Of a stretch of DNA of 64,000 nt, positions 15,264-64,000 are shown piece by piece. This DNA comes from a virus (lineage: Duplodnaviria; Heunggongvirae; Uroviricota; Caudoviricetes). A program made the translations under genes and the position numbers. Each line of letters starts with the position of its first letter. The stretch's first letter is position 1. The notes beneath the pieces were generated by a model, which made no database searches, was not told the DNA's origin, and saw nothing but the letters and a program-made list of their open reading frames with translations. Where the stretch lies: IMG/VR virus record IMGVR_UViG_3300029571_000006; one strand, 5' to 3'.

Positions 15264-15306
15264 TTGTTATCTCCTTTCAGTTTTATTGTGGGCTGTTACA
15301 CCCTAG

Positions 15307-23569: not shown

Positions 23570-23570
23570 A

Positions 23571-25031
23571 TTATTTTCCTCCATACATCCTTTCTCTAAT
23601 ATCCAGGAATGAGTCTTCTCTGACAAATGCTCCGTCTTTGAATACCGTTGTGAGTAAACTATCATCGCTCATTTCCATCAACTGATCTTGACATTTAAGC
23701 TGTCCATCTTCCTCGTAAACTCTGCAGCATCCCTTGTGTGATTTCTTCAAGTGACTTGTATCTGTTTTTGGATCTTTATAAATCATCACTTTTTCGCCAT
23801 TGATGATGCCATATGTTGCTTTCATTGCGATTCCAAATGTATCTCTTGTAGCCACAATGAGTTTTCCGTCCTCTGCAATCGCAGTAAAGCAGAAAGCACC
23901 AACGCCATATGCGATATTGTTCGCCGCAAACCCTCGTTTTTCTAACTCTCTCCAGATAGTATCTACATTTGATAATGTGCATCCATCTCCGTAGATAATA
24001 CCGATGTGTGGATCGAGCACTTTATACCCCTTACTGTTTGTGGTTCCTCCGAAAATCTCCCATAACTTTTCAACAGTTTTCACAGAAATATCCACAATGT
24101 CTCCGCTATCTGGTCTTACTAACAGCTTACCATGATGATTCATAATTTCTTCCTTGCATTGTGGAAGGATATTATTTATCATATTCCAGTAATCGTAGGT
24201 GTCGGATACCATACTAAATGATGTATTTGGATATAATTCAGTGAGTAATCTTTTGACAAAGGTAATTTCATCTCCATCTACAGAGAAGTTTGCACCCATA
24301 ACGCTATGCTCTGTCGATACAGCTCCAATGCCAATGCCTTCTTCTCTGCAATTTGCATTGTAATATTTGTCAATATAAGAAATTGCCGGAATCGTAGAAG
24401 TCTTATCGAATGATAAAAGCCATGATGCCGAGCATCTTACTGCCTCATCCATACAGGACATTCCTCGCATTCCAAAATCAGCGCAAGCAAGTTTACCACT
24501 CATTCCGTCTGTTGTATTATCGTACCAGTAGTCAGCAATATTTCGATACATATTACCAATCGTTGCATGACAGCATGGTTTCCAAAGTTCTACCTGTAAA
24601 ATACATTCAATCCACTGAACAAGCCATGCAAAGTCCTCATGTGTATTTGTGATTTCAATACATGGAATTCCCATTGTAACCATCGTTCCTTCTGGAAGCG
24701 CTCTGATTTCTAATGGTAAATATCCCAATCTGTGCAGTTGCACAATTTTATCAATATCATAATTACCATCGCCGATTTGAATATTCATTGTTTCTTTATA
24801 CTGACTTACCACATCTTCTTCCGTCTTACCAAAGAAATTATCATTGAAATATCCGATAAGATACTCTTTGATAAATGCCTGAAGACCAAAGAATACCATT
24901 TTATCCTGTTGCCTCAACATAGATCTTCTAGGAACCCAATATGACACGAGCTTCGTCAATCCTTTTGGATACATTCTGTCGTGACACTGTTTGTATGTAT
25001 CAGATAATAATAAAGCCATTACATCATTCAT
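23571..25031 (-). CDS. Nicotinamide phosphoribosyltransferase family protein (NAMPT/NadV-like; could be a Namat-type variant)
   Basis: N-terminal LLSDTYKQCH (NAMPT DSYK motif). 486 aa, type II PRTase pattern throughout. Confidence 0.75.
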   Translation of the reverse strand: MNDVMALLLSDTYKQCHDRMYPKGLTKLVSYWVPRRSMLRQQDKMVFFGLQAFIKEYLIGYFNDNFFGKTEEDVVSQYKETMNIQIGDGNYDIDKIVQLHRLGYLPLEIRALPEGTMVTMGIPCIEITNTHEDFAWLVQWIECILQVELWKPCCHATIGNMYRNIADYWYDNTTDGMSGKLACADFGMRGMSCMDEAVRCSASWLLSFDKTSTIPAISYIDKYYNANCREEGIGIGAVSTEHSVMGANFSVDGDEITFVKRLLTELYPNTSFSMVSDTYDYWNMINNILPQCKEEIMNHHGKLLVRPDSGDIVDISVKTVEKLWEIFGGTTNSKGYKVLDPHIGIIYGDGCTLSNVDTIWRELEKRGFAANNIAYGVGAFCFTAIAEDGKLIVATRDTFGIAMKATYGIINGEKVMIYKDPKTDTSHLKKSHKGCCRVYEEDGQLKCQDQLMEMSDDSLLTTVFKDGAFVREDSFLDIRERMYGGK

Positions 25032-27879: not shown

Positions 27880-28908
27880 CTAAATTAGTCCTCTTACAAC
27901 TCTTTCGTTTACGTCCATCACAAATTCCTGTATTGCCTTATAGTCTGGCTTTTCAGGAAGATCTGTATTTTCTTTTGCATACTTCATCTTCTTTTCGTAG
28001 TCATCGACCATTTCAAAGAACTCCGGTATTGGCTGTCTATTACCATCAAGGTATTCACCATTTCTGATTGACATCAGCAGTTCATGTTCTTTCTCTCTGA
28101 ATGTTACAATCTCTTTTCTCTCAAGAATATCAAGGCACATCATATAGAGCCTGATTAGATGCATCATATGCTTTCCTAATTTGTTATGCTCTATCGCATT
28201 CTTATTTCTTTTCCCTACCTTGGCGTAGTCCTTCACCACATTATGCATTTCAGACCACATTGATTTATAATCCCGAAGTGGATATCTTGTTAAATGCACA
28301 TCCATATAAATTTCGGAATCCATATCTTCCCTATCCGACTTATCGATATACAACTTGATCGCGTCATCCGGATATTCAAAATATCTTTCTTTGAAGTCTG
28401 CACCCACGTTACGTATACTGTTTAATATGTGTTGCTCCCGCTGCGCTTGACCGACAAGCCTTGCTGCTTTATTATCAAGTCTTCTAAGCTGAGCCGTAGC
28501 ATATCCACCGAAAGCCTGTGCCGCTTTCTTTGAAAGGAACAAATCCTTATTATGTAATAATTCCTGTCCTACAGGAGACAGAAATAAATAATGCTCAGGC
28601 TTTAACCCAAGCATCTCAATCGTATTTGGATTGCAATTACAAAGCAAACTTATTAACTTATTGAACGCATACACTGTAGTATCCGTTTTCTCATCAACAA
28701 ACTGCTCGTAATGTTGATTTGTAAGAATTTCTTCCTTACTATTCAGAGCGCATCCTCTTACATCAAGGTCAGATGTCTCGTTATTTGTTCCATATGCATG
28801 ACTTCCTCCAAGTCCGATAAGGATGATTCTGTTTCCGAGGTGATCGTTATTTCTAAGGAAATTGTATTCCTCCGACGAGACCATATTTTTAATTGTTTGC
28901 AAATCCAT
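27880..28908 (-). CDS. Nucleotidyltransferase (minimal Pol-beta-fold NTase) with helical C-terminal domain
   Basis: ILIGLGGSHAYGTNNETSDLDVRG = GS...SDxD NTase signature. RBS GGAGGAG before MDLQTIKN. Confidence 0.5.
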   Translation of the reverse strand: MDLQTIKNMVSSEEYNFLRNNDHLGNRIILIGLGGSHAYGTNNETSDLDVRGCALNSKEEILTNQHYEQFVDEKTDTTVYAFNKLISLLCNCNPNTIEMLGLKPEHYLFLSPVGQELLHNKDLFLSKKAAQAFGGYATAQLRRLDNKAARLVGQAQREQHILNSIRNVGADFKERYFEYPDDAIKLYIDKSDREDMDSEIYMDVHLTRYPLRDYKSMWSEMHNVVKDYAKVGKRNKNAIEHNKLGKHMMHLIRLYMMCLDILERKEIVTFREKEHELLMSIRNGEYLDGNRQPIPEFFEMVDDYEKKMKYAKENTDLPEKPDYKAIQEFVMDVNERVVRGLI

Positions 28909-28910
28909 CT

Positions 28911-29154
28911 TACTCCTCCATAATGAATTCATGGATGCTACTCATATAATTCTGAACTTCTTCATCAGAGCATTTCTCAAAGCTTAAACTCAACGGCTTT
29001 GTCAGGTCTAAGCTGAAAATCCCCATAATTGATTTAGCATCAATGATATATCTTCCAGATTGCAGGAACACATCTCCGTCTACTCTGGATGTTTATTTAC
29101 GAACTCCTTAACTTTGTCAATAGAATTTAACATTACTTTACACATGATAATCAT
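28911..29154 (-). pseudogene. HPr-like phosphocarrier-domain gene interrupted by a -1 frameshift near 29080 and lacking the HARPA histidine motif
   Basis: Frame a: MIIMCKVMLNSIDKVKEFVNKHPE*. Frame b: VDGDVFLQSGRYIIDAKSIMGIFSLDLTKPLSLSFEKCSDEEVQNYMSSIHEFIMEE* (KSIMG-type HPr core). Confidence 0.3.
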
Positions 29155-29732: not shown

Positions 29733-29761
29733 AATAACTATCAGCCTTTCTTAAATATAAA

Positions 29762-30089
29762 TGGAGCTGAGGGGAGTCGAACCCCTGTCCAAAAATATTA
29801 CTCACTATGAATCTTTACGCTGTTTTGGAATCATGTACTGATTTCTATCCACCACTCTGTTCTTAACTGTCTCAACCAATACAGGTGTTCATTTACAGAG
29901 AACCGTATACAAATTATGCTTGTTTTTGAACCTCAGTATCTACCAGCAATATCTCAATACATTTTGGTGTAGCAACTTAGGCTACTGCTAACATCTGTCT
30001 GTTTGCGTTTGTGTTTAATAGTTGATGATTAAGTCATCACTCTAGCGAATTCATAACTTTCATACCCCTGTCGAAACCTTTACAGCCCC
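29762..30089 (-). ncRNA. ssrA: tmRNA (SsrA), phage-encoded
   Basis: 5' GGGGCTGTAAAGGTTTCGACAGGGG and 3' GGACAGGGGTTCGACTCCCCTCAGCTCCA match tmRNA tRNA-like ends. Acceptor GGGGCTG/CAGCTCC includes the G3-U identity pair. Tag-like reading frame ...GCAAACAGACAGATGTTAGCAGTAGCCTAA (…ANRQMLAVA*). Similar to the B. subtilis tmRNA ends. Confidence 0.75.
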
Positions 30090-40713: not shown

Positions 40714-42930
40714 CTATTCGTCTTTGAATTTCTTACCGGAGTCTGATTCGTAAAACATATCTCGCAATGTGCAGATATTTCTCGGAACACTATCTAAATC
40801 CTCTACATCATGAAGTGTTTTAACCCATGCGTAGAACTGATTTGCAAGAGGTGTTACCAATGCCGCTGTTCTTTTCGGGTCAATATATCCTTTCTTAATG
40901 GCTTCATGCGAAATTGATCTCATGAATTTCCAGAAATTGTAGTACGCCAGTTTCAGCTTAACCATGTATCCGTTTGAATCTTCAATAACGAATCCCTCGA
41001 TGCGTCTTCCGTCATACTTGTAATCTTCATCCATTACCATATTGTACCAATCAAAGAAGTCCTGCCATGTTTCAATCTCATATCCCAATTCTTTATGAGG
41101 AATGTTGAGAGATTCAGCAACAGTACACATCTCCTCAAAACTAAGCTTCTGGAATTTCATATCATTTGATACGATATCCAGCAGAAATACTCTGCTCTCC
41201 GGATACTTAATAATGTGAGGGTCTCTTTCCATGTCTACATTTTCAAATACAAATGATACGTCATGCTCTTTACAATAAGCATTGATCTTATCAAGAGTAT
41301 CGTCACCAAGCTGTGTATGAAGTGCTTCAGCAAACCATTCAGCATATGACCCTTCCGGATTTGACTTAGTAGTCACAAACAGTTTTCCTGTTTCTGGATT
41401 ATTGGATACGATTCCAAGATATCCATTCTCCTTGACGTATGCCCTCACAGGGAATGCCAACTTATCCTGCAGCTTGTCTAATTCTGTCTCTGGTCTTTCG
41501 TTGATGTTAAAGAACTTATCATAAGCTCTGGCAACAATTTTCTGTTTTGGAATATCGATGTATAATCCTCTTGCCTTTGTTGTCTGCTCGTCCCAGATTT
41601 TGTCATAAAACGCTGTTTTGGTGAAGTTAAATGATGAGATATCTCCATACTGCTTTTCCTTGATGTACTTATTTCTTCTAAGCTCAAGAATCCACTCTCC
41701 GACGGAATCCGCACCAGCAGACACCTCTTCCGGTTCTCTAAATACTGTATTCTTTACCTCTACCGTATTGAAAGTACCGTCGTTATCGAGGATAACAGCT
41801 CTCAGGCTTCCACCAAACTCAACTCTTCCTTCAAGATTGAAGGCATGATTGTTGACTTTTACCGGAAGTCCTTTTGTATTTCTATGACCATGAATCTGAT
41901 AACAATTTTCATCCATCTTATCCTCGAATGTTGCATCTACCTGCTCAGCATCGTTGTATCTTCCAACACCCTTAATCATCTGACTGGTAGATACCATTGT
42001 GAGATTATCTGGAATCATACTTAACCCAGCATGTGTGGCAAGGACTGTCTTACCTCTGAATTCGTAATAAGCGCACTGACCCATCCGTCTGTAAAGCTTC
42101 CTGATTGACTTCTTATCAATACCGGCTGCTTCGATTTCTGCTTTTGTATGGAATTCAAACTCTTTAGATGCCGTCACTTTATCATGCGCCCAGTCCCATA
42201 ACCACCGCTCATGATTACCCTCAAGAAGCAGCACATTCGGCTTATCATATGTTGAAAGCAAGAATTTCAAGACATCAGCGTTTTCAATTCCTCGATCTGT
42301 GTAATCACCACAGAAGATGTAGAATTCATCATCTTTAAAACCGCCATTCGCTTCAAAATATGTATTCAATGCTGTATTACATCCATGAATATCTCCAATA
42401 TGATGGATACGTTTGTACTGATCCAGATTGAATTTCTTCATAAACACAGCGTTTAACTCATCTGGCTGAATAACCTTAATGCCTGACGGAATTTTCTGTG
42501 TCTCGAACCTTGCATACATCTTATCGATTACTTCTTCCGGCACTCTTTTCAGTTCCTGTCGTCCTCGATTTCTTTCCTTTGTTACCTCGATTGGAACAGT
42601 CGTCATATCAACGCAGTAGATTCGGTATCTGTACTCATCGCACATCTTCTTATATCTATTCATTTCAGATGTTTTAGAGTTAGTAGCATCAATCACAGTA
42701 AACTCGCCATTCTTCATTCTTGTCTCCAAGATATTGAACAGTGTTTTCCACACAATATTATCATTTGCCTGACTGATTGCGTGTGTTCCGTCCGGCATCA
42801 TCTGCGGACTTGAGCACATCATTCTAATATTATCTGCTGATAATGCATACTGTTTTAATCCGTTCTGCTCAATCCATGTGGATTTCCCACATCCTGCGCT
42901 TCCTCTTAATAACAGTAAAACTCTCATGTT
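40714..42930 (-). CDS. Pnkp-like RNA repair enzyme: polynucleotide 5'-kinase + metallophosphoesterase (3'-phosphatase) + nucleotidyltransferase/ligase domain
   Basis: P-loop LLLRGSAGCGKST, phosphoesterase GDIHGC...GDYTDRG...GNHE, ligase motif I KENGYLGIV. RBS GAGAGGTG before MRVLLLL. Confidence 0.6.
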   Translation of the reverse strand, partial: NMRVLLLLRGSAGCGKSTWIEQNGLKQYALSADNIRMMCSSPQMMPDGTHAISQANDNIVWKTLFNILETRMKNGEFTVIDATNSKTSEMNRYKKMCDEYRYRIYCVDMTTVPIEVTKERNRGRQELKRVPEEVIDKMYARFETQKIPSGIKVIQPDELNAVFMKKFNLDQYKRIHHIGDIHGCNTALNTYFEANGGFKDDEFYIFCGDYTDRGIENADVLKFLLSTYDKPNVLLLEGNHERWLWDWAHDKVTASKEFEFHTKAEIEAAGIDKKSIRKLYRRMGQCAYYEFRGKTVLATHAGLSMIPDNLTMVSTSQMIKGVGRYNDAEQVDATFEDKMDENCYQIHGHRNTKGLPVKVNNHAFNLEGRVEFGGSLRAVILDNDGTFNTVEVKNTVFREPEEVSAGADSVGEWILELRRNKYIKEKQYGDISSFNFTKTAFYDKIWDEQTTKARGLYIDIPKQKIVARAYDKFFNINERPETELDKLQDKLAFPVRAYVKENGYLGIVSNNPETGKLFVTTKSNPEGSYAEWFAEALHTQLGDDTLDKINAYCKEHDVSFVFENVDMERDPHIIKYPESRVFLLDIVSNDMKFQKLSFEEMCTVAESLNIPHKELGYEIETWQDFFDWYNMVMDEDYKYDGRRIEGFVIEDSNGYMVKLKLAYYNFWKFMRSISHEAIKKGYIDPKRTAALVTPLANQFYAWVKTLHDVEDLDSVPRNICTLRDMFYESDSGKKFKDE

Positions 42931-43336
42931 TTCACCTCTCATATATTTCTTAGTTGGTTGCATAAGTAACTCCACTCCAGACCTCACTCATTGCCTTTAC
43001 GCATGACGATATTGCAACCACAATAATGCCTCAAGTGCATTACCGATAGTCTTTTCAGTATACTTATAGGAGCAGGGGTGTTAGTGTTTCCCGTCTCAGT
43101 CTACCAAGGTATTTACGAAGCCAGAAAAGGAATAATCGCTCCGTCCGTTGAGGCTACGCCTTACGCATCGCTGAAAAGCTCATCGTTTCGCTTCGATGGT
43201 GCAACTTCCACCTAACCTCTATTTCTTTTACGCCCAAATATATAAACAAATATATGCCAACCACAACATACTTGTTTATATATCCACCTTGGAACCCGAC
43301 CGCTACTCACAGCCGTGATATGTTATCTCAACCGGG

Positions 43337-43731: not shown

Positions 43732-43946
43732 TTCATAACACTTCCTTTCCTGTTTAAACTGTAATCTAAAGTACGGTAGCCCGTGTAATCACGCCCAGTA
43801 GATCTTTGATCTTCAGGTTCCTCCTCTTATGGAGGTATTGATTATCAGTGGGTTATGTATATCCTGAAATTATTTCTGGGTTTACGGCGTGCTCAGCATC
43901 TCGTGCTGCCGCGTCTTCCAGCTGCTTGGTGACGGTTATTTTCCTC

Positions 43947-44003
43947 ATCAAGTTGTCACTTCCGCCGACGGCAAGAAGCACTGCAAAGCAGTAATATCAT
44001 TAC
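43947..44003. repeat. Conserved structured element copy A (34-nt box ATCAAGTTGTCACTTCCGCCGACGGCAAGAAGCA + covarying hairpin + TAATATCATTAC)
   Basis: Identical or near-identical box at 51142, 51402 and 53277. Hairpin sequence differs but the stem is preserved. Confidence 0.6.
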
Positions 44004-44006
44004 GGT

Positions 44007-44306
44007 TTAAAACATAATATCTTCTTTCGTGACTTGATCTTTGGACTTCTTATTTGAGTATTCTACCCATGAAATCCATTTGTGATTTTCCGTGACATCT
44101 CCAGTCACATCGTATACTTTCCCTCCAATTCTTGTTCCGAAACAATTATTTTTTGGATCATACATGATTGCTGCGTTGTTCCGAATAAATCTTCTGAATA
44201 AAATAGAAGCAAACCAGTAGCTGTTTCGACCAGAAAATGATTCAATCACGCCATGATTTGCTCCTCCAGAGGTAATCCGATATATAAATTTCATTGCATC
44301 ATTCAT
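44007..44306 (-). CDS. Hypothetical protein
   Basis: 99-codon ORF. Confidence 0.4.
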   Translation of the reverse strand: MNDAMKFIYRITSGGANHGVIESFSGRNSYWFASILFRRFIRNNAAIMYDPKNNCFGTRIGGKVYDVTGDVTENHKWISWVEYSNKKSKDQVTKEDIMF

Positions 44307-44394
44307 AAATCCACCTCTCTTTAGTTATCGGCTACTAATACTTGCGATTTCTTGAGGAAAATTTTCTATATATAGTAGCCGATATTCTTTTTAA

Positions 44395-45267
44395 TTATTT
44401 ACCGTTCGCATCTACAACCGTTGCATCTGCTCCCTGTACCGTAACCCATCCATGCTTCAGACGAGCTTCTGCCTCTGTCATCTGAATAAGTTCCGGTGTA
44501 AGGCTTGCTGATTTTAACTGATTCGCCTCAGCCTCTGCTTTTGCGGCAGTCACTTTGATATCGGCTTCATTCTGCGCCTTAATAAGTGCTGTCTCAGCCT
44601 GTACTTTTGCAGTCTCCTGTTCAACCTGTGCCTGCTGTTTCTGTTGTAATGCCGTTACCCTGTTGTCAATCGACTCTTTCAGCTTATCATCTGGATGAAC
44701 ATCAATAATACTTGCATCTAATACCTGAATGCCATATTCCTTTTCAAATGCATTATTCAAATATTCTGTAATCTTATTGTTGATTTCACTACGATTGCCG
44801 GAATAGATATCCATCATTGAATAGTCTGTTGTAATCTCAGACACCTTTGACTTCAGAACAGTTTTTACTCTGCTATTTACAATAGCCTCTCCGTCCATAC
44901 CTTTGAACTTCTTATATGTATCCACGAGTGTATCCGGATTGAATCTGTAAGACATCTGGAAACTAATTGCGAGCATAGCATCATCAGATGTTGACACTTT
45001 GAATGAATCGTCTCCTTCGCTACCCTCACGACTATCTTTACTCAGGATAATCTGCTCATTACTGATCGTGAAATTCTTTACTTTCTTAGTCGGAGATACT
45101 ATGTTCCAGCCTGTGCTGAGAGTCTCACCGGATACGCCGCCGTTAATGTTGTACACAACACCCTCATATCCCACCGGAATCTTTTCAACGCACATAATTA
45201 CTCCTACAACCACCGTAATCATAACGATAGCTGTAACAATAGCTCCGATTAAACCTTTTTTCTTCAT
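44395..45267 (-). CDS. SPFH/Band-7 (stomatin/prohibitin/HflK-like) membrane protein
   Basis: N-terminal TM, SPFH core (ISFQMSYRFNP...), C-terminal coiled coil. Confidence 0.6.
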   Translation of the reverse strand: MKKKGLIGAIVTAIVMITVVVGVIMCVEKIPVGYEGVVYNINGGVSGETLSTGWNIVSPTKKVKNFTISNEQIILSKDSREGSEGDDSFKVSTSDDAMLAISFQMSYRFNPDTLVDTYKKFKGMDGEAIVNSRVKTVLKSKVSEITTDYSMMDIYSGNRSEINNKITEYLNNAFEKEYGIQVLDASIIDVHPDDKLKESIDNRVTALQQKQQAQVEQETAKVQAETALIKAQNEADIKVTAAKAEAEANQLKSASLTPELIQMTEAEARLKHGWVTVQGADATVVDANGK

Positions 45268-45433
45268 TCTTCTTTCTCCTTTGACTCTGATTCTTTTTCC
45301 TCATAATTGATAATATTAAAAATTCTCTTCATCATTTTCAGGAGAATACCTCCTAAAGGAATAAAGATGAAGGAAATCGCAAGCCATAAACAAAAGGCAG
45401 CAACAATTATCAAAAACCAAAATACTGGATTCA

Positions 45434-45673
45434 TTAGCTTCTACCTCCGTTTTCATTATCCTTTGCATCGAAACCGAATTCGTTGAAAATACCACCATAA
45501 GGCTGGTCTGCATTTATCGTCTTCTCAACTCGATCAAGTCTCTTTTTAATTTCGTTGAATCTTGGGTATGACAAATCGTCTTGCTCATCCAAATACTTCC
45601 ACCCTAATACACATATGACCACCGCAACACATACAATAAATGTACAGATAACAATGCCAATCATAGACACCAC
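45434..45673 (-). CDS. Small membrane protein
   Basis: TM segment IGIVICTFIVCVAVVICVLGW. Confidence 0.35.
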   Translation of the reverse strand: MVSMIGIVICTFIVCVAVVICVLGWKYLDEQDDLSYPRFNEIKKRLDRVEKTINADQPYGGIFNEFGFDAKDNENGGRS

Positions 45674-45778
45674 CTCCTCTTACTCTTCTGCTTTATGATG
45701 TTTTCTACTGCTTTTACATATTCCTCATTATTTGGAGACTTAATTTTAACGACTCTATCAGCGTAATCCTTTCTCCCT

Positions 45779-46237
45779 TTATGATTTATCTGCACGATTC
45801 ATCGCCTTTCCGATTAACTCTAAACCATGTTTGATGCGATCTGCATATTCCTCATCATCTTCAAGGTACTGATATAAAGCATCCTCGTCTTCTTCTCCAT
45901 GTAAGTGACATTCATGAATCCAACTTGTGCCACTCATCTGCATTGGAGGAAATTTCTTTTCATCCGGATGAGTAAACGACTGCCAATAATCATTCTCCCA
46001 ACCGTTAGTGTCTACATCTCCCTCTTCGTATCCTAAATCCTGCAGCACATTAGATACCACATATGGATTGATTGGTGGCATATTGGAGAAATCAACACCA
46101 TAATCATACCGGCTACCGTCAGATTCATTCGGATTGAACTTTGTCACTTCGTTGATTGCCACAAGAATCATATCCATTAAATCTGACTTCTCATCATCGC
46201 TAAGATGATATAGCGACTTTTGCTTATGCAATAACAT
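45779..46237 (-). CDS. Hypothetical acidic protein
   Basis: 152-codon ORF. Confidence 0.35.
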   Translation of the reverse strand: MLLHKQKSLYHLSDDEKSDLMDMILVAINEVTKFNPNESDGSRYDYGVDFSNMPPINPYVVSNVLQDLGYEEGDVDTNGWENDYWQSFTHPDEKKFPPMQMSGTSWIHECHLHGEEDEDALYQYLEDDEEYADRIKHGLELIGKAMNRADKS

Positions 46238-46249
46238 GCAATTTACCTC

Positions 46250-47536
46250 CTAACTGTAGCTCACTTCTGTTTTATCTGTTCTGATTCCGACAAATACCGG
46301 GAACTGTAAACTCTCAAGCCCTGTAACTTTGTCCTGAGATATTTCTTTGTATTTCACTTCACAAAGCAATCCTTCCATATCATCACGGTTATTCCAGAAC
46401 TGTTCTCTCTGTTCGTCCGTGAAGCCAGATCCTACTTTTACCTCATTTTCTTTGTACTTCAGAACAAACGCTCCCAATGTACCGGATAATCTACCAGTCC
46501 CTTCTTCACAACGGATAATCGGCAAATCCATCGTATAGAATCTCTTTACTTTCAGAATTCCCTTATGCCTTGTTCTTCGATATGGAACATCTGTGTTAAT
46601 CATCAATCCTTCCTTGTCCTCTCGAACCATCTGTTCTAATAGCTCTTCGATTTTGGACTGATCTGTACCATGATACAGAACTGGTAGAACATTTACAGCA
46701 CCGTCTGTGTCTGCAACTCTCTCTGCAAACTGATTGAGAATATCCCTACGATATCTGTACGTAACTTGTGGCTTTAATGCATCGAAGTCTTTTACCGGAA
46801 TCATGTCAAAAATCGTATAGCAAATCACCGTTTTATTAACATTATCGGAGTTCAGTATTCCAGTAGAAACTCTGAATGCTTCATTGTCACTCAGGTCTCC
46901 TTTATCTTTCAGTGTCAATTCTCCGTCTGCAACAAACCCTGCGACTCTCAACCACGACAATGCATCAGTTATATGTTCCAGTCCTTTATATGGCATACCA
47001 CTTCTTGCAAGCAGCTGCCCTTCATACAGAGTTGCTCTTGCTCCATTAAGCTTTTGTGTAAGCCAGAATTCCGTTCCTTCTTTCAACGGATACTTCTCAA
47101 CGGTATAAGCTTGCTGCACTTCCCATTCCGGGATAAGATTCGGAATAATCTTATTGATTGTCTTAGCCGCAATTCCGAGACGAACTTTCTTTGAAAGCAA
47201 CTGTATATACAACTCTCTCTCATCCATTTCCGGATACTTCACATTTAGAAGCATCTTTACCTGTCTTAATGTTGCATCATCCATACCTCTGAGCCTCGAC
47301 AAATGCTCACAACATTCAAAAATGTCATTAAAAAAGATAAGCTTTTGACCGTCGAAATTTTCTTCAGCCATCAGCTTATCTGTTGATTTTTTCGATATAT
47401 TGTATGTAAGCATTGGGTTAAGTGCAAAATATAGAAATCTTTTAAAGTATGTATCATCGCGATGTGCTTTAATGAGCTCACACTTTGCATTTGCACCGGC
47501 AATGGATTGCAACTTGTAGATATCTTTATAACCCAT
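46250..47536 (-). CDS. ATP-dependent DNA ligase
   Basis: Motif I KLNGARATLY (KxNGxR), motif III FVADGELT, motif IV EGLMINT, motif V LKVKRF. Confidence 0.6.
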   Translation of the reverse strand: MGYKDIYKLQSIAGANAKCELIKAHRDDTYFKRFLYFALNPMLTYNISKKSTDKLMAEENFDGQKLIFFNDIFECCEHLSRLRGMDDATLRQVKMLLNVKYPEMDERELYIQLLSKKVRLGIAAKTINKIIPNLIPEWEVQQAYTVEKYPLKEGTEFWLTQKLNGARATLYEGQLLARSGMPYKGLEHITDALSWLRVAGFVADGELTLKDKGDLSDNEAFRVSTGILNSDNVNKTVICYTIFDMIPVKDFDALKPQVTYRYRRDILNQFAERVADTDGAVNVLPVLYHGTDQSKIEELLEQMVREDKEGLMINTDVPYRRTRHKGILKVKRFYTMDLPIIRCEEGTGRLSGTLGAFVLKYKENEVKVGSGFTDEQREQFWNNRDDMEGLLCEVKYKEISQDKVTGLESLQFPVFVGIRTDKTEVSYS

Positions 47537-47547
47537 CTTTTACCACC

Positions 47548-48669
47548 TTAAACATTGTAATGAATATTTCTTGATACCTTTCTATTGATTACAAGGCATT
47601 CCACTCCTGCGTCTTTTAATGCAGTTTCCATAGCCTTTTCATCCTCACTGTCTCCAAAATAATACTCAACTTTAATCGCATCAGCAGGTATTACATGTGC
47701 GAACTTTCCTGTATCATAGACTGCATTGCAAGGATTGAACGTAATGTCTACATTGTTTCGACCTTTATTATCGTACATATACACATTTTTATCACCATCG
47801 TCACCAAACATATCCATACTGATATCCTTCGCTTTGAAGCTGACTCCATTCTTAAATCTCAGCATAAGGTTATATGACTGCTGCTCTGTGTTTACGATAT
47901 TCAGATCCTTAATCGCATCACAGAATGTCAATCCGGTATTCAGCTCAGTTGCGATAGCGCGCAAGCAGTCATAGTTTAAGCTGATTTTATTTGAGAAAGA
48001 AATAACATTATCAATTTCTTTCTGGTATTCTTGCTGCAATTTATCTGTCAGATATTCTCGGATCTCATTTGCAGACGGATACTCAAATCTAAAATGATAA
48101 TGGAACCGCCCCGGTCTGTTAATCAGATACTCATTCAGTTTATACAGCTCATTGCAAGTCACGACAAACAGTTTCTTGCCTGACGATAACCCGTCAAATA
48201 AAGATAATAGATTTGTTTGTGGCGACGCTTCTCCTGCTTTTGACTTAACTTCTCCGAATGTTTTATCGAATTCATCAAACAGAACCATGACTTCCTGTTC
48301 GATGTCTTCTATATAAGAAGCAATACCAGGAATATATCTGTCAACCACAATCATTGGAATTCCTCTTTCAATCGCAGCATTTGACAGCATCTTTGCAAAC
48401 AGAGATTTCCCGATTCCTTTGTCTCCGCTAAGGATGACTCCGAGATTTCTATCCTGCCTTTCAAACATATTCATTACTTTGTTTACTTTTTCTGTATGCA
48501 CACCATAAACTTTTGGCTCCTTGATTTCCATATCATTATATTTCTCCAAAAAGAAGCCTCTGATTTCTGAAAATCTTACGACATATGACTGAGCAGGTAA
48601 CTTTTCAAACACTTGCATTGTGTCATCAAAAATATCGTATGTGTTGTCGCCACGGTTAATTGCTTTCAT
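47548..48669 (-). CDS. AAA+ ATPase
   Basis: Walker A GVILSGDKGIGKS, Walker B VMVLFDEFDK, sensor-2-like NRPGRFHYHF. Confidence 0.6.
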   Translation of the reverse strand: MKAINRGDNTYDIFDDTMQVFEKLPAQSYVVRFSEIRGFFLEKYNDMEIKEPKVYGVHTEKVNKVMNMFERQDRNLGVILSGDKGIGKSLFAKMLSNAAIERGIPMIVVDRYIPGIASYIEDIEQEVMVLFDEFDKTFGEVKSKAGEASPQTNLLSLFDGLSSGKKLFVVTCNELYKLNEYLINRPGRFHYHFRFEYPSANEIREYLTDKLQQEYQKEIDNVISFSNKISLNYDCLRAIATELNTGLTFCDAIKDLNIVNTEQQSYNLMLRFKNGVSFKAKDISMDMFGDDGDKNVYMYDNKGRNNVDITFNPCNAVYDTGKFAHVIPADAIKVEYYFGDSEDEKAMETALKDAGVECLVINRKVSRNIHYNV

Positions 48670-48993
48670 TGTATTAAATTCCTCCTTTTTTTATTTTACT
48701 CACAATCCGTATGCGTAATCTCTGGTTCTCTAATGTCGAACCAAAGAGATTAGCATATGCAGGTTATTCGTATGCCATCGTAAAAACTTTTGCTGTTTTC
48801 AAAATTTGATCTTTAACGTAGTTAAATGATCTTATTTTGGAAACGTAAAAGTTTTGAGATGCAAGAACCATTGTCGAACTCTCGCTGACAGCAGGAGTGA
48901 TTGCAAATATGTATCGCTGTCGTATTAAATACTTTCGCTAAAAACAATCCATTTTCATTGTGAGTATACTAATGCATTATGTGCAGTAATACC

Positions 48994-49404
48994 TTATCCC
49001 CAAAGTAGTTCATCAAGAGCTTTGTCTATAGTATCAAAAATTCCATCAACGTATTCATATTTTGCCGTCTCTGGATTCATTTCTGATATAATATCCTCTC
49101 CATCATTCTTTAATTGATGTACTATTGCCCCTTCAAAATCATTCTTCTTGATTTCTACTCTGATACCATACATTGCATAATCAGAAAATGTCAGAACAAA
49201 CAAATCCTGACCATTCTCTATATGTTTCCTTACAACTTTTCTTACATTATTATATAAAGCTCTCGGGTGTCGTAAAAGCATCGAATTTTCTGGAAATACC
49301 ATTTTAGGAGCATATTGATATACATATCCGTTTTCAGATATGACTTTCTCAAACAGTGATTCCACATCCGCCCCTTCTTGTCCAGAAACTATAATAAGTT
49401 TCAT
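48994..49404 (-). CDS. Hypothetical protein
   Basis: 136-codon ORF. Confidence 0.35.
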   Translation of the reverse strand: MKLIIVSGQEGADVESLFEKVISENGYVYQYAPKMVFPENSMLLRHPRALYNNVRKVVRKHIENGQDLFVLTFSDYAMYGIRVEIKKNDFEGAIVHQLKNDGEDIISEMNPETAKYEYVDGIFDTIDKALDELLWG

Positions 49405-49413
49405 ACCTTTCTC

Positions 49414-49722
49414 CTAACTATTGATCTTAATTCCACTTAAGAAATCATCAAGCTCGGCTCCATCAATTTCATCTTCAGGAACAGGTTCTACCATATCGAT
49501 TGATATTGATATCGCTCCCATAGTATAGCCAAGCAATCTCTGTCCTTCAATGCCAGTAATCATGAATTCATCACCGCACATATTACGCATAAAGTCAGTA
49601 AAACTGTACTTACACGGAATATTTCCATCCTCATCAACACCAAACTCTGCTTCCATGTCCTCCCACGATCGGATTCTAACAACGTCTCCGACCTTTGGAT
49701 TGAAGTTACTCCTGTCCATCAT
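49414..49722 (-). CDS. Hypothetical protein
   Basis: 102-codon ORF. Confidence 0.35.
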   Translation of the reverse strand: MMDRSNFNPKVGDVVRIRSWEDMEAEFGVDEDGNIPCKYSFTDFMRNMCGDEFMITGIEGQRLLGYTMGAISISIDMVEPVPEDEIDGAELDDFLSGIKINS

Positions 49723-50269
49723 TATCTCCTTTCCACCTCAGTATCTCGCTTAATGTTCTCGGCATGTAGTTCATGTACTCTACCATACATCCAACATTAA
49801 ACATCCTCATTGGAATATCCTGAAGCTGTCTTAATTCTTTCTCAATATTCAGACAGTAATTGTACTGACTTGATGTATGAACATGACCATACAGGTGTAT
49901 TGTATTCCTGTGCTGTCCATTCCAAAATGGTATCGGATAATGAGATAGTATAACCTTCTCATCTCCGTCTTTAATTTCTGCATACTCGCAGATTCTGTCA
50001 AAATTTCTTGCAACTTTTGGAGAAATATGGTCATGATTTCCTTTTACCAGAACTTTATGCCCCTTTAAACATCCGAGAATAAAGGCTGTTTTATCTTCTT
50101 TGTACCAGCTAAAATCTCCTAGGATATATACTATATCGTCACTACCGACAGTCTCATTCCACAGCTGGATCAACGCTTTATCCATTTCCTCCACTGAGCC
50201 AAACGGTCTATTATCATACCGGATGATATTCTTGTGACCAAAATGCATATCTGCTATATAAAAATTCAT
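49706..50269 (-). CDS. Calcineurin-like metallophosphoesterase
   Basis: DMHFGH, GDFS, GNHDH, GHVH motifs. Confidence 0.6.
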   Translation of the reverse strand: MNFYIADMHFGHKNIIRYDNRPFGSVEEMDKALIQLWNETVGSDDIVYILGDFSWYKEDKTAFILGCLKGHKVLVKGNHDHISPKVARNFDRICEYAEIKDGDEKVILSHYPIPFWNGQHRNTIHLYGHVHTSSQYNYCLNIEKELRQLQDIPMRMFNVGCMVEYMNYMPRTLSEILRWKGDNDGQE

Positions 50270-50466
50270 TACTTTTCCCTTTCTTTAGTGTGATGAAGAC
50301 AATTTCCACAAATATAAGCCTTATCAATACTAAATGTTTTATACTTATCAGATTCTTTGTTCATGCAAACACATGCTGTATGTATTCGCATGTCTTCTTC
50401 GGACAGAAAGTCTCTTTTATCCAAATAAATACATCTCATGCTTTTACTCCGGCAGGCACTTAACAA
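50269..50466 (-). CDS. Hypothetical small Cys-rich protein
   Basis: 65-codon ORF. Confidence 0.25.
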   Translation of the reverse strand: MLSACRSKSMRCIYLDKRDFLSEEDMRIHTACVCMNKESDKYKTFSIDKAYICGNCLHHTKEREK

Positions 50467-50902
50467 CTCTTTTTGTATGCCCTATCGTCTTCAACTTAGA
50501 CCGCGTGATCTTCTCAATCTTTGTGACTTTGACTTCTACGTCACCAAAAATCGTTCTGACTATTGCATGAGACCCAATTTTAAGATTCTCTGAGCCTTCT
50601 GTATCGTCTACCATCTTCCAGCGATATTCCTTGTCAACACCAGGATGCACTCCATAAACCAATGTGACCTGCCTTGTATTTGTCTGCTTAACGCATACAA
50701 CCTTGGCTTTATTTTCAATAAGGACAAGATATCCGATATATCCGTCTTTAAGTACCATATTTTCATCAACTACAATATCCCTGTCAAGACGATGGTTTGT
50801 CCGGTAGAACTCTCTGCAAGCCTCCATTTTGTCTTCGTTTGGTCTTGAATGGCTAAATCTATTTGGGACTTTTATCAAATTGATGCTAGTGTTAAAATGC
50901 AT
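50444..50902 (-). CDS. Hypothetical protein
   Basis: 152-codon ORF. Confidence 0.35.
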   Translation of the reverse strand: MHFNTSINLIKVPNRFSHSRPNEDKMEACREFYRTNHRLDRDIVVDENMVLKDGYIGYLVLIENKAKVVCVKQTNTRQVTLVYGVHPGVDKEYRWKMVDDTEGSENLKIGSHAIVRTIFGDVEVKVTKIEKITRSKLKTIGHTKRVVKCLPE

Positions 50903-51141
50903 ATTCTTCCTCCTTAAATTTGTTTAAATGTACAATCTAATATGTATAGATGAGCTTATCCAGGATCTAATTTATGTATGCCGGTGCTGCGATGATTTGG
51001 ATTTCAAGAGTCCTTGATTCTATGTTTCATTGAATTTCAATTAGTTATCCTGTTGACAGTTTGTATTTGTTATGTTATGAGGTTCCTGATGAGTTTGTAC
51101 TCAGCTCCTCCTCTGGCGCTCTCGGGTAGGTTCTCTGCCCT

Positions 51142-51200
51142 ATCAAGTTGTCACTTCCGCCGACGGCAAGAAGCATATCCAATGGATATAATTTCATTGT
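51142..51200. repeat. Conserved structured element copy B
   Basis: Box identical to copy A over 34 nt. Hairpin TATCCA-A-TGGATA, then TAATTTCATTGT. Confidence 0.6.
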
Positions 51201-51401
51201 ACATTTATGATTTGCTATGCAATCTAGTGCATGTTTACCTGTATATCGCTTCCTGAAAGTTCTTTCTGGAGCTAACTTTCTGGATTTGATTCTGGTATAA
51301 GTTCCTGATTATCAATATTGCTTTTTCTTGAGTCTTCAGTTCCTGGATGGTGATCCGGAAGGAGGCACCCGTCGTCTGCAGGATGGTATGTTTCTTTCCT
51401 G

Positions 51402-51460
51402 ATCGAGTTGTTACTTTCGCTGACAGCAAAAAGCACTGTAAAACAGTAATTTCATTGCAT
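51402..51460. repeat. Conserved structured element copy C (diverged, with compensatory changes)
   Basis: ATCGAGTTGTTACTTTCGCTGACAGCAAAAAGCA: the internal palindrome GCCG-A-CGGC becomes GCTG-A-CAGC. Hairpin CTGT-AAA-ACAG, then TAATTTCATTGCAT. Confidence 0.6.
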
Positions 51461-51477
51461 AGCTTATTATTTGTCAC

Positions 51478-51873
51478 TTAGTGGTTCTGTACGAATTTCC
51501 CATCTTCTGTAATCCACATTACTCTAATGATAATGTCTCCGTTTTGATCCATTTTCTCTAACATGACTACATCTTCTATATCCCAGTTTATCGGGTATGC
51601 TCCAGGATATTCGATTGCACACTCTATTGGAGTTGATGAATCGGTCTCTATCCAATCTCTGTCTAAATTGAACGATCCAGGAATGGTATCAACTTTCATG
51701 TGCTTGATTCCGTATTTATCCAGCATCGCACACACTTCTTTGATATATTCATTCTCATACAGCATCTCCTCAAGTTTTGGAACGGTTATATCGAACATGC
51801 ATTTTGCGATTTCATTATCTTTAACTCTATTACCAATCCACATTGACAAGATTTTCTTTCGTTCTTCCATCAT
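51478..51873 (-). CDS. Hypothetical protein immediately downstream of the RT
   Basis: 131-codon ORF. Confidence 0.4.
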   Translation of the reverse strand: MMEERKKILSMWIGNRVKDNEIAKCMFDITVPKLEEMLYENEYIKEVCAMLDKYGIKHMKVDTIPGSFNLDRDWIETDSSTPIECAIEYPGAYPINWDIEDVVMLEKMDQNGDIIIRVMWITEDGKFVQNH

Positions 51874-51917
51874 TTGCTACCTTTTAAAACCTTTCTATAC
51901 CTTTGAAGACCTACAGC

Positions 51918-53057
51918 CTAAGCTGTGAGGTCTTCTTTAATTGATTTCACGATATCCACACCAAATTTCTCGCTGAGATGTTTAACGATTCCGTCAATCT
52001 TTTCTCCCTCAACCATCCGGTAATAGTTTCTATACCCGTCCATCGTTTGAATATCACTTTTATCCCAGGCGATTCCATTCTTTCTATCCATAGCATACGA
52101 TGAAAGCATTGCCTGGAATTGTCTTTTCTTTTTGTGACCTATCGTGATTTCATTATCTTTGTTGAGCATCAATCCAAGATTCCAGTTCTGACCCGCTGAC
52201 GATCCATATCTCGTCTTCTCTTTCTTGATTGTAAACGGCGCTCCGAAATCATTCAGTATTGATACGATTACATTCTGGATTTCCATAAAGCTAAACCCAT
52301 ATTTAGATGAAATCTGGAAATCATCAGCATATCTTGTATATACAAACCTCTGGTGATTGTATTCTCTGAGTGTTCTTGCAACTTCAAAATCAACCGGAAT
52401 CATCATAATGTTTGTAATGGTTGGAGACAACGGAGTTCCCTGTGGAAGTCCCCCATCCAAGAATCCAAGCTCAAGAGCCTTTGCAAGTGCTTCTTTTCCT
52501 TTGTCATCTTTCATTACTTCCGAGAATGGGAACACCATCGAAAACATATGCAGCACCCATTCCATTGTTGTGCTTCCAAAGAAATTGGATAAGTCTAACT
52601 TCTCAAACCACTTACTTTCATTCGCCTGATGCCTTTTCAAAAGATCTAACGTACTTCTACCTTGTATATATGCGAATGCTGATGTGTGATAAAGCGCTTT
52701 GAAATCAACCTCAAATATATTTTTCAGAGTGCGTAATGCTTCTTTGAGTTCCGGTTCCGGAGCGTCAATCTTTCTAAGTCCGCCACTCTTTTTCGGAATA
52801 TGGAACTCATAGTACCATTCATGCCGTGGCTTCTCTCTTAAATATTCTGTTCTTTCGTTGAACCATTCGAGTTTTGCAATAAGCTTGTCAATATCAACAA
52901 GCTGAAGAAATCGATCACTAACTTCTTCAACCTCATACGTCCTTGTATTCGTTAAATTTGCATTTATTAACTGTGCGCCAGAACCAGATCCAAATAGGAA
53001 CTCTTCCAGAGTCATCTGGTGGTATGATGGTGGCTGTTTTACTGTTATGTAATACAT
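51918..53057 (-). CDS. Retron-type reverse transcriptase
   Basis: YYEFHIPKKSGGLRKIDAPEPELKEALRTL (retron RT motif 1/2 with LK), SAFAY...GRS, DLSNFF, GLPQGTPLSPTITNIMM, YTRYADDFQISS, KEKT...NLGLML. Aligns motif-by-motif with retron Ec86 RT. ATG after RBS AAAGGAG (the track start is a TTG). Confidence 0.7.
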   Translation of the reverse strand: MYYITVKQPPSYHQMTLEEFLFGSGSGAQLINANLTNTRTYEVEEVSDRFLQLVDIDKLIAKLEWFNERTEYLREKPRHEWYYEFHIPKKSGGLRKIDAPEPELKEALRTLKNIFEVDFKALYHTSAFAYIQGRSTLDLLKRHQANESKWFEKLDLSNFFGSTTMEWVLHMFSMVFPFSEVMKDDKGKEALAKALELGFLDGGLPQGTPLSPTITNIMMIPVDFEVARTLREYNHQRFVYTRYADDFQISSKYGFSFMEIQNVIVSILNDFGAPFTIKKEKTRYGSSAGQNWNLGLMLNKDNEITIGHKKKRQFQAMLSSYAMDRKNGIAWDKSDIQTMDGYRNYYRMVEGEKIDGIVKHLSEKFGVDIVKSIKEDLTA

Positions 53058-53276
53058 ATTTTCTCCTTTCAAGAACTGCAATCTAATGTATGTCTTAGTT
53101 GTATCCGTGCTGCATGATCCTGATCTTGATCATGTCTCTGCTTGGTATAATCCATTGATTATCATGTACTTATGACCTATCTGTTCCGGGATTCATCCTC
53201 TTCGGAACCTTTGCTGGAATTTCATGAAACTCTCGCATCCTCCGTTGCCTTCTATCCCGGCGGGGTTGCATTCCCT

Positions 53277-53337
53277 ATCAAGTTGCTACTTCCGCCAACG
53301 GCTGAAAGCTATCTCAAAGAGATAAATATCATTGCAT
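53277..53337. repeat. Conserved structured element copy D, inside the 300-bp ORF-free leader of the RT gene
   Basis: ATCAAGTTGCTACTTCCGCCAACGGCTGAAAGC + hairpin TATCTC-AAA-GAGATA + AATATCATTGCAT. Confidence 0.6.
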
Positions 53338-53343
53338 GTTCTT

Positions 53344-53370
53344 TATAAAAACCGCCACGCAACGTGGCGG
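53344..53370 (-). terminator. Rho-independent terminator ending the E1/JAB operon, upstream of the RT leader
   Basis: Minus-strand stem CCGCCACG-TTG-CGTGGCGG followed by TTTTT. Confidence 0.55.
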
Positions 53371-53384
53371 TTCATTCACTTCTA

Positions 53385-53582
53385 CTACACATTCTTGCTA
53401 ATCTTATCGACATATGCTTGGAAGCTACGAATCAGTTCTGTATCTTCTATATAAAATGGATCAGAGTTATACTCGTCGTGAAAGAAGTTATACATTAGCT
53501 GACCGAATCTCATGTCTGGTACTCTTTTCCACGCAGTCGATAAAATTTCGCAGAATAGGTCGATTCTTTGCTTATCCCTCAT
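53385..53582 (-). CDS. Hypothetical small protein (last gene of the operon)
   Basis: 65-codon ORF, 3-bp spacing to the upstream gene. Confidence 0.35.
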   Translation of the reverse strand: MRDKQRIDLFCEILSTAWKRVPDMRFGQLMYNFFHDEYNSDPFYIEDTELIRSFQAYVDKISKNV

Positions 53583-57344: not shown

Positions 57345-57418
57345 TGGATCGTATCCGACTCGAACGGATGACCGGTCGGTTATGAGCCGACTGCTCTAAC
57401 CCACTGAGCTAACGATCC
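57345..57418 (-). tRNA. tRNA-Met (anticodon CAU; could also be initiator or lysidine-Ile type)
   Basis: GGATCGT-TA-GCTC-AGTGGGTTA-GAGC-A-GTCGG-CTCATAA-CCGAC-CGGTC-ATCCG-TTCGAGT-CGGAT-ACGATCC-A. Clean cloverleaf. Confidence 0.75.
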
Positions 57419-62986: not shown

Positions 62987-64000
62987 AATGATTCTCCTCT
63001 CTGGATGCTCTTTTTAGTTTCAATGGGATAAGCCCATAAGAGAACGCCCGAAACCATGTGATATACACAACCTCGGACGCTCAATATAGGTTTATCAGAA
63101 CCACCGACATATCCGGCATCGTATGGACTTCTGCTGATACGCATTTGTCTGGAACTTTTCGCCAATGCCAGTGGTTCCGTTCAATATTCAGTTTTATTTC
63201 GCTATACTCTGTCTGTATCAAATTTCCTGCGATAGTCCGACATTTAATTCCTTGGAACATAGTCGATGTACCCTCGGGTACTGATACCATCACGATTGGA
63301 AATCCTCAATAGATTTTCAAGCTATCCCTCATGTTGACGCACTCAGGATAATGCGGCATATGTTTCACATCTAACTCTGCCTAACTCTGGGGATTTTCAC
63401 TATCTCGATACCATAAGCCTAACTCTCATGCACCAGCGACGCATCTGATAGCAGATGTACTCCCTCAAATCGGTCAAAGGAATCCACGATGACCGCAGAG
63501 TTTTGCTGATATTCTAAAGCCGTCAGTAGGTCAGCTCTGCCGAAACTCTTTGTATAGCGTCCTTTTGCCGGACTTCCCATATTGAACGCTTCAACTGATA
63601 TAGTTCACTTATTTCCTATCACGCAGGTAGCCCTCACGATACCTCATAAGAGATCCGATATATGCACTTATTACCTGCGAGTAGGTAGACCTCACAGTTG
63701 TATGGACATAAGCCCATAAAGAAAAGCCCCTCAATAGAGAGACTCTTCGTTAAGAACTTATTAGCAAGGATTTTCGTATCAATTAACCAACGGATTTACC
63801 TTTATAGAGCGCCCATGCTCATCCGTTCCGTATCTTGCATTATATGGCGGTTTGTATACTATGTCAGATTATATTTATATACCGCGCATCTGACATAGGC
63901 GAACTCTCTGGATTCTCAGCTTTTTCGCTCTGTCTTTTCGTGTTCCCACACTTACAACCGTAACCCACGGGGAAACCCTGTTGAGTGGTTGCCTGTTGTG

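Follow-up and report, generated by a model that had tools for sequence, protein, structure and literature searches.

A family of candidate retron-type RNA units around the reverse transcriptase gene of a Caudoviricetes phage

Retrons are usually described as bacterial anti-phage systems, with one non-coding RNA (ncRNA) per reverse transcriptase (RT). What, then, is to be made of a retron-clade RT gene that lies in a viral genome among several copies of a conserved structured element? This question is raised by a stretch of 64 000 nucleotides (nt) from a Caudoviricetes phage (IMG/VR record IMGVR_UViG_3300029571_000006), the whole of which is called the window below. An earlier note, made from the sequence of this stretch alone, described four copies of the element, three of them clustered around the RT gene, and listed as candidates small ncRNAs (possibly, trans templates for the RT), weak terminators or attenuators, and palindromic protein-binding sites. 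The answer favored here is that each copy probably constitutes the msr, the 5' domain that does not serve as template, of a full retron-type msr-msd ncRNA, transcribed from the minus strand, with the RT shared among the units. This answer builds on the repeats and their strand, on the covariation of three stems (a1/a2, P1 and P2), on the retron-clade RT next to one of the units and on the multi-unit layout in related phages.

Repeats, strand and covariation of the units

The 34-nt box of the element is exact at 43947 and 51142 and degenerate at 51402 and 53277, the copies belonging to the units designated A, B, C and D, respectively; the box is identical in A (43947-43980) and B (51142-51175). 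All four copies share one orientation, and dinucleotide shuffles contain no match to the box (none is expected). In a repeat search of the 42-56 kb region, these copies, with 74-100% identity, make up the sole convincing direct-repeat family, the remainder being eight two-copy families with 70-80% identity. A covariance model (CM) of the 60-nt front end, built from relatives of the element, detects the four copies in the window at 57.7-69.1 bits (E-values of 1e-12 to 3e-10), all on the minus strand, with the next match at 13 bits. The claim of four copies in a single orientation is thus borne out by pattern matching, repeat search and CM alike. The perfect hairpins that vary from copy to copy are also found, as CTGC/GCAG, TATCC/GGATA, CTGT/ACAG and TATCTC/GAGATA, the second of which had been given as TATCCA/TGGATA, and direct reading recovers the double change from GCCG-A-CGGC to GCTG-A-CAGC in copy C. 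The motif said to trail the hairpin, TAATWTCATTGCAT, is exact in copy C and differs in A (TAATATCATTACGG), B (TAATTTCATTGTAC) and D (AAATATCATTGCAT); this variation is informative because the stretch consists of a linker, a G and one arm, a1, of a long-range stem. The statement that all copies sit in gaps free of open reading frames (ORFs) has to be amended, in that mechanical ORFs overlap some of the copies; the substitutions there show no codon periodicity.

Read on the minus strand, each unit starts with the arm a1 (10-13 nt), which is followed by a G, a 5-nt linker, the hairpins P1 and P2, a tail, a variable middle, (U)AG and the second arm, a2 (UAG precedes a2 in the units A-D, and CGG in a divergent fifth unit, E). 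P1 consists of 5-9 base pairs (bp), mostly A/U-rich, with a different sequence in every unit; P2, GCUUYU(N)GCY-GUY-RGCGRAAGU, is a conserved hairpin of 8-9 bp that is stacked directly on P1 and accounts for most of the 34-nt box. The tail after P2 has the form NNCAACUYGAK, with the single-stranded core CAACUYGAK, and the middle is a non-coding, fast-evolving segment of 180-215 nt that is GC-rich at its start. The unconstrained minimum free energy (MFE) folds of 270-316-nt stretches around the units A-D all close via a1/a2, with stems of 10-13 bp the sequences of which differ from unit to unit, for example, UAAAUGUACAAU/AUUGUACAUUUA in B and GCUAUGCAAU/AUUGCAUAGC in C. The box and hairpin first described are only the 5' part, approximately the first quarter, of a unit of 250-283 nt, and the closing arms, the two opposing G residues beside them and the fifth unit at 48697-48966 had been missed. 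The GC-rich composition of the flank is real, with 53-57% G+C in the 70 nt beside each box compared with the window mean of 39% (top 0.2-1.6% of the 70-nt windows); the flank is, however, not a separate upstream feature but, in the RNA sense, the start of the variable middle after the box.

The strand can be gleaned from the wobble pairs. A G.U pair closes P2 in 31 of 31 sequences, and further U.G pairs in P1, P2 and a1/a2 exist on the minus strand only, so that the RNA is sense to the genes (all credible genes of the region are on the minus strand) and opposite to the orientation adopted in the earlier note, in which the wobbles of P1 and P2 do not form. A plus-strand RNA was rejected, the U.G pairs turning into A x C mismatches there; single-sequence folds of either strand are not decisive.

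Relatives of the element were collected by degenerate pattern scans of viral (IMG/VR), metagenome and genome collections, with a few contigs of metagenome-assembled genomes (MAGs). The true instances number more than 60 and are diverse in P1, in a1/a2 and in the middle, and the CM search identifies 125 units in 66 related loci, with up to four units per locus. The order D, C, B, A is kept in relatives at ~80% identity, and the RT is flanked by units also in three more distant contigs. Further copies with covarying stems thus exist in related genomes, and the proposal of a structured ncRNA family is upheld by 31 distinct relatives. In the gap-free, padded alignment of these 31 units (A3), a1/a2, P1 and P2 are paired in 94.8% of the cells, compared with 35-46% when the partners are slid by 1-3 columns, the percentage being partly built in because P1 arms were set by per-sequence folding and a2 by best pairing. 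Both sides have changed in 23 of the 29 pairs, with 226 double-changed cells compared with 72 in shuffles, and 0 of 500 shuffles reach any observed measure. Double changes are present in 12 of 12 pairs of a1/a2, and P1 and P2 combine compensatory changes with 100% pairing. P2, which does not depend on the choice of the arms, displays C-G to U-A and G-C to A-U exchanges, such as the inner G-C pair that has become A-U in the RT-proximal units of the related contigs L012 and L027. RNAalifold applied to the relatives of unit D (n = 12) recovers a1/a2, P1 and P2, again with G-C to A-U changes in P2. Among 36 distinct arm pairs from the relatives, the cognate a1/a2 stems have a median score of 22, compared with 12 for non-cognate combinations (95th percentile, 18), a control that addresses a1/a2 only. 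A G directly follows a1 in 53 of 67 units, as it does in all 31 units of A3, and a2 is preceded by AG in 47 of the 67.

The copies do not appear to evolve independently of each other. The units of L012 at 1830 (A-like) and 10159 (D-like) share another P2 variant, ACU...AGU, and the segment L095:489-546, with its flanks, is a chimera in which the front end of unit A (a1, P1 and P2) is joined to the middle of unit B. The msr copies thus seem to be homogenized by recombination (concerted evolution), the chimera implying, at the sequence level, recombination between units at the conserved msr. Such recombination, along with the 10-13-bp inverted repeats that flank each ~250-bp segment upstream of genes and a near-palindrome in the middles of A, C and D, would also be compatible with a DNA-level element, in which either a1/a2 would delimit, as inverted repeats, a segment able to invert or move, or the palindromes would be bound by proteins. 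This is highly improbable: the pairing tolerates G.U but rarely other mismatches, and on one strand only, the arm sequences differ among the copies, unlike recombinase sites, no recombinase was matched among the neighboring ORFs scanned (Pfam, PHROGs and PADLOC), and the near-palindrome is not enriched in the window. The protein-binding candidate of the earlier note is unsupported for the same reason, since G.U pairs and compensatory changes that keep the pairing point to an RNA rather than a DNA palindrome.

Its other candidate, according to which P1 and a U-rich stretch are weak intrinsic terminators or attenuators of the upstream minus-strand genes, all other conservation being incidental, is very unlikely. 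In A and C, P1 does lie 10-35 nt past the upstream stop codon, and GCUUYUU follows P1 on the minus strand; the short, A/U-rich stems are, however, not called by a terminator scan, a strong terminator already stands immediately before unit D, and P2, the tail, a1/a2 and the linkage to the RT are left unexplained.

The reverse transcriptase and its relationship to the units

The RT of the window contains the Pfam RVT_1 domain with the YADD motif and matches the PADLOC model RT_II-A (9.4e-47), along with many other retron types. Retron models match it far better than Drt2 (35 bits) or Drt3a, and the nearest solved structures are those of the RTs of retrons Ec83 (5.5e-22) and Ec78 (1.7e-16) and of the St85 family. 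The protein carries an N-terminal extension of ~75 amino acids (aa). No second RT was found in the window. The a2 arm of unit D is followed, after 15 nt, by the ATG of the RT gene on the same strand, and the same succession of unit and RT gene recurs in nine distant relatives and in RT homologs down to ~65% DNA identity; every relative that extends far enough keeps the RT-proximal unit in this position. The units C, B, E and A follow the RT gene at distances of 0.45 to 7.9 kb.

Retron ncRNAs are characterized by complementary a1/a2 ends, a conserved branching G and one to three short msr stem-loops, the msd being a single or double long hairpin (stem of 10-50 bp), with the RT gene following (PMC8632793, PMC7736814). 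The consensus transcript of the I-A/II-A1 retrons includes two opposing G residues (PMC7736814), and these are matched by the G after a1 and the AG before a2 in the units. Because the units show three retron features and unit D is in the canonical position, the box with its hairpin is taken for the msr, and the flank rich in G+C for the beginning of the template (msd) region. On this evidence, the units are likely to be retron-type templates.

Unit E, which is only weakly matched by the profile, is strongly folded (z-scores of -4.8, whole unit, and -6.6, middle alone) and has a canonical msd-like double long hairpin with the support of compensatory changes: the consensus structure of its relatives (n = 8) contains 12 compensatory pairs, mostly in the two long hairpins. 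It is situated before AAA-ATPase and DNA-ligase genes. The phage appears to have four retron-type ncRNAs, with E probably a fifth.

If the units are retron templates, the 250-283-nt RNA would fold by a1-a2 pairing, which would place the conserved G 3' of a1 opposite the conserved (A)G 5' of a2. By analogy with known retrons, the phage RT would recognize and bind the shared domain of P1, P2 and tail, prime from the 2'-OH of the G after a1, and copy the variable middle, starting beside a2, into single-stranded DNA. Because the five units (D, C, B, E and A) share the type of front end and the window has one RT, this enzyme would make several different multicopy single-stranded DNAs (msDNAs), which would amount to a natural retron array. 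That one RT should use several msr-msd units is feasible: a single retron RT has been shown to work with tandem arrays engineered from such units (PMC10370050). We infer the reverse transcription itself, the branching role of the G and the service of the RT to distant units in trans from the comparison with characterized retrons. The suggestion of trans templates for the RT came close to this reading; the tie to a retron-type RT stands, and the trans use is putative.

Several observations weigh against such an interpretation. The best NCBIfam family of the RT is retron_St85_RT, with 170 bits, under the cutoff of 235, and, in the alignment with the Ec83 RT, LLKRH lies opposite NAKIH (region X) and NLG opposite VTG (region Y), so that NAXXH retains its H alone and VTG its G alone, these being the most conserved residues of the two signatures (PMC7736814). 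The Rfam search recommended earlier matched no family: the units in the window have no gathering-score match, and in 50900-53420, there is none at E<=10 except for chance snoRNA matches. To this has to be added that the pairing percentage and the arm control are limited in the ways given above. The middles of A-D lack the canonical single or double long msd hairpin (MFE z-scores of -0.4 to -2.3). Only unit D adjoins the RT gene; the other four units are separate from it, and most stand before unrelated genes, which would also fit a general leader element, and neither family nor fold searches recognized a known retron effector domain in the 131-aa and 152-aa proteins beside the RT. Finally, 3 nt separate a1 of unit D from the end of a terminator-like hairpin (kept, with altered loop and stem, in L012 and L027), which makes the origin of an a1-containing transcript hard to account for, and promoter-like sites inside or before the units are not enriched and none stands out.

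Table 1. Units, their parts and adjacent features in the window
Feature	Position	Strand	Parts	Remarks
Terminator-like hairpin	53345..53372	-	AACCGCCACG-UUG-CGUGGCGGUU, then UUUUU	Intrinsic-terminator-like; direct reading; absent from simple terminator scan
Unit D, RT-proximal	53073..53341	-	a1 53331-53341 (GAACAUGCAAU); candidate branching G 53330; P1 53310-53324; P2 53288-53309; tail 53277-53287 (AGCAACUUGAU); middle 53083-53276; a2 53073-53082 (AUUGCAGUUC), UAG before a2	CM 69.1 bits; MFE fold closes a1/a2
RT, retron clade, 379 aa	51918..53057	-		ATG at 53057; mechanical ORF starts at TTG 53081
131-aa gene between RT and unit C	51478..51873	-		No family match; predicted local distance difference test (pLDDT) 74.8, no significant fold match
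Unit C	51214..51463	-	a1 51454-51463 (GCUAUGCAAU); G 51453; P1 51435-51447; P2 51413-51434; tail 51402-51412; middle 51224-51401; a2 51214-51223 (AUUGCAUAGC)	CM 63.8 bits; MFE fold; unit B follows 6 nt on, no gene between
Unit B	50925..51207	-	a1 51196-51207 (UAAAUGUACAAU); G 51195; P1 51175-51189; P2 51153-51174; tail 51142-51152; middle 50937-51141; a2 50925-50936 (AUUGUACAUUUA)	CM 67.7 bits; Shine-Dalgarno (SD) sequence and ATG of 152-aa gene 22 nt after
152-aa gene after unit B	50444..50902	-		ParB/Srx-like N-terminal domain, DUF5839-like beta-rich C-terminal domain; pLDDT 88.9
Unit E, divergent fifth unit	48697..48966	-	a1 48957-48966 (UACUCACAAU); G 48956; P2-like hairpin 48879-48897; two long hairpins in middle; a2 48697-48706 (AUUGUGAGUA), CGG immediately before	Weak profile match; strong fold; AAA-ATPase gene follows
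Unit A	43753..44011	-	a1 43999-44011 (UUUAAACCGUAAU); G 43998; P1 43980-43992; P2 43958-43979; tail 43947-43957; middle 43766-43946; a2 43753-43765 (AUUACAGUUUAAA)	CM 57.7 bits; SD and ATG of 71-aa gene 21 nt after

Variable middles, adjacent genes and the phage

The middles evolve in a manner very different from the rest of the unit. Across eight close relatives that span the segment D-RT-C-B, nucleotide diversity (pi) is 0.008-0.016 in the msr domains and ~0 in a2, compared with 0.04-0.14 in the middles, the latter values being similar to those at the third codon positions of the neighboring genes (0.062-0.096). The front end and the closing arms, judging from the aligned sequences, are under strong purifying selection, whereas the middle apparently drifts at an approximately neutral rate or faster. 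Despite this drift, the middle keeps the unusual G+C content at its start. Across 32 non-redundant units, the middles have a mean z-score of -1.07, and the longest uninterrupted helix is 6-15 bp; local hairpins with some compensatory changes are present. RNAalifold proposed, for D-type units, a further helix in which the CAACUYGAK tail would pair with AUCARG downstream; this candidate was discarded, with a score of 13.9 compared with 13.0 in shuffles and no covariation with the K position.

The short open frames and SD-like AAGGAG-AUG strings that follow the box in some relatives could suggest that small peptides are encoded in the GC-rich flank, the box providing a leader or ribosome-binding context. 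This is hardly credible given that the substitutions in the middles are spread evenly over the codon positions (0.12/0.11/0.09, compared with 0.011/0.004/0.065 in the RT gene) and that the frames are not conserved between the copies; small ORFs and leader peptides in the flank were, thus, rejected for want of codon periodicity and of consistent frames.

The search for targets of the middles elsewhere in the window yielded nothing significant (best match, 17/18 nt, E-value of 0.035), and the middles of A-D have no match in 50,697 phage records. Because the middles match nothing in the window and those of A-D nothing in known phages, a guide or antisense function against a sequence in these data is unsupported. 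The near-palindrome TGATAATCA is present in the middles of A (43839-43847), C (51306-51314) and D (53156-53164), on the minus strand, and also in the D-like units of relatives. An operator role was rejected, since the window shows no enrichment of this sequence and the other exact copy that was examined, at 16993, falls within a gene.

With respect to adjacent genes, the units B, E and A end 13-45 nt before the SD sequence and start codon of unrelated genes, encoding the 152-aa protein, the AAA ATPase and a protein of 71 aa that has a hydrophobic stretch at its N terminus, respectively. In relatives, other units precede the gene of a metallophosphoesterase (in one contig) and those of other small proteins, and the 152-aa family follows a unit in many of them. 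Together, the units account for the recurrent gene-free gaps of 0.3-0.6 kb in these phage genomes. The short distance between a2 and the start of many unrelated genes, the location of unit D directly after a terminator-like hairpin and the lack of the canonical msd hairpin in the middles are all compatible with cis-acting leader RNAs that involve no reverse transcription and that function in processive antitermination, as lambda nut or HK022 put, or in processing or stability, the RT gene being merely one of the controlled genes. Two adjacent sense-strand hairpins in multiple copies in an early region do resemble nut/put sites. Such leaders are, nevertheless, an unlikely explanation. The closure by a1/a2 with two opposing G residues is a retron hallmark that has no role in nut/put, the position next to the RT is kept in all relatives that reach far enough, the constraint on the msr is much stronger than a simple hairpin needs, and unit C precedes not a gene but another unit, so that the units are not merely 5' untranslated regions.

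In the metagenome assembly collection, 528 blocks index a protein identical to the one encoded between the RT and unit C (131 aa), the cluster of which is seen on 253 contigs. In the related contig L037, the stretch after the unit at 2891-2951, on the minus strand, reads by eye like a tRNA gene, not a protein gene.

The window represents a replication and accessory region, with genes for DNA polymerase, primase, DnaB helicase and DNA ligase. A counter-defense-type cluster is found at 22156-25031, 27880-28932 and 40714-42987, on the minus strand; its genes encode NAD synthetase and nicotinamide phosphoribosyltransferase, a nucleotidyltransferase (PHROG phrog_388) and a kinase-phosphatase-Rnl1 RNA ligase fusion, which suggests that the region deals with host defenses. 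Other RNA genes on the minus strand are those for a transfer-messenger RNA (29759-30089; Rfam, 91 bits; ARAGORN tag peptide ANRQMLAVA), tRNA-Gln(UUG) (15306-15378), tRNA-Met(CAU) (57345-57418) and a full-length RAGATH-16 RNA (63385-63457; Rfam RF03047, 88.9 bits), a motif of the class first found near self-cleaving ribozyme-associated genes. The lengths of the related contigs, which come from human-gut metagenomes, cluster near 115-119 kb, and more than 4,000 contigs bear the RT. The phage, of ~118 kb, is common in the human gut; MAG and protein labels point to Eubacteriales, Lachnospiraceae and Eubacterium ramulus. A blastn search with the whole RT region found no match among the INPHARED phage records.

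What such an array would do can be proposed only tentatively. A phage with one retron RT and four to five msr-msd templates, arranged in tandem or as leaders of accessory genes, might make a changing set of single-stranded DNAs during infection, with these DNAs possibly serving as decoys or sensors against host defenses or rival phages, or coupling accessory-gene expression to RT activity; this scenario is less likely to be right than wrong. A role in inter-phage exclusion or counter-defense is a guess that is prompted by the neighboring counter-defense-type genes; a role in phage-host or phage-phage conflict is a reasonable guess from the NAD-salvage and RNA-repair (kinase-phosphatase-ligase) neighbors.

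Comparison with known systems

The two RT-linked systems in which a structured ncRNA, as a would-be template, precedes the RT gene, DRT2/UG2 and the diversity-generating retroelements (DGRs), are alike in this respect to the units described here. They differ in that the phage RT matches retron models far better and that the a1/a2 ends with opposing G residues are specific to retrons. A DGR was rejected also on the ground that there are no near-identical repeats of the template-variable (TR/VR) type, the only repeat near the RT being the box, with flanks that are unrelated between copies. The lambda nut and HK022 put sites, multi-copy sense-strand hairpins at the start of early gene blocks, can be considered only a functional analog, the units here having, unlike these sites, a long-range closing stem, a linked RT and a 200-nt variable insert.

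Close counterparts are the clade 1 retrons of bacteria (I-A/II-A; Ec83/Eco4, Ec78/Eco7, St85/Sen2). In these, as at this locus, the RT has YADD and its gene directly follows an ncRNA in the same orientation; the ncRNA has complementary ends, a1/a2, with two G residues facing each other, and contains two short stem-loops in the msr and a variable region from the msr to a2. Unlike these retrons, the locus belongs to a large phage with its own replication genes rather than to a bacterial defense island; a single RT is accompanied by four to five ncRNA units, some of them kilobases off and before unrelated genes; the middles of A-D are long, fast-evolving and free of a long msd hairpin; and the RT has the N-terminal extension and non-canonical NAXXH/VTG signatures, with no recognized effector. 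The departure from the standard retron is, then, that the presumed RT-recognition domain is conserved while the putative template regions diverge fast, and that four to five ncRNAs stand in place of one. The literature searched yielded no account of a natural multi-ncRNA retron or of a phage retron array, so a viral, multi-template use of retrons would be previously undescribed. If the RT uses all the units, retrons would play a part on the side of the virus in the conflict, and the canonical long msd hairpin would not be obligatory.

In its layout, the locus resembles the engineered multitrons (PMC10370050), in which several msr-msd units, in tandem or dispersed, with the same msr and differing msd, are served by one RT; the units C and B here are in tandem. 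Multitrons are synthetic constructs for multiplexed genome editing, whereas the arrangement in the phage is natural and the use of its units by the RT is putative. Should the RT indeed use all of them, the phage would harbor a natural counterpart of engineered retron arrays, with an RT and an msr scaffold that tolerate long, unstructured and highly variable templates and that could be useful for multiplexed DNA production or editing.

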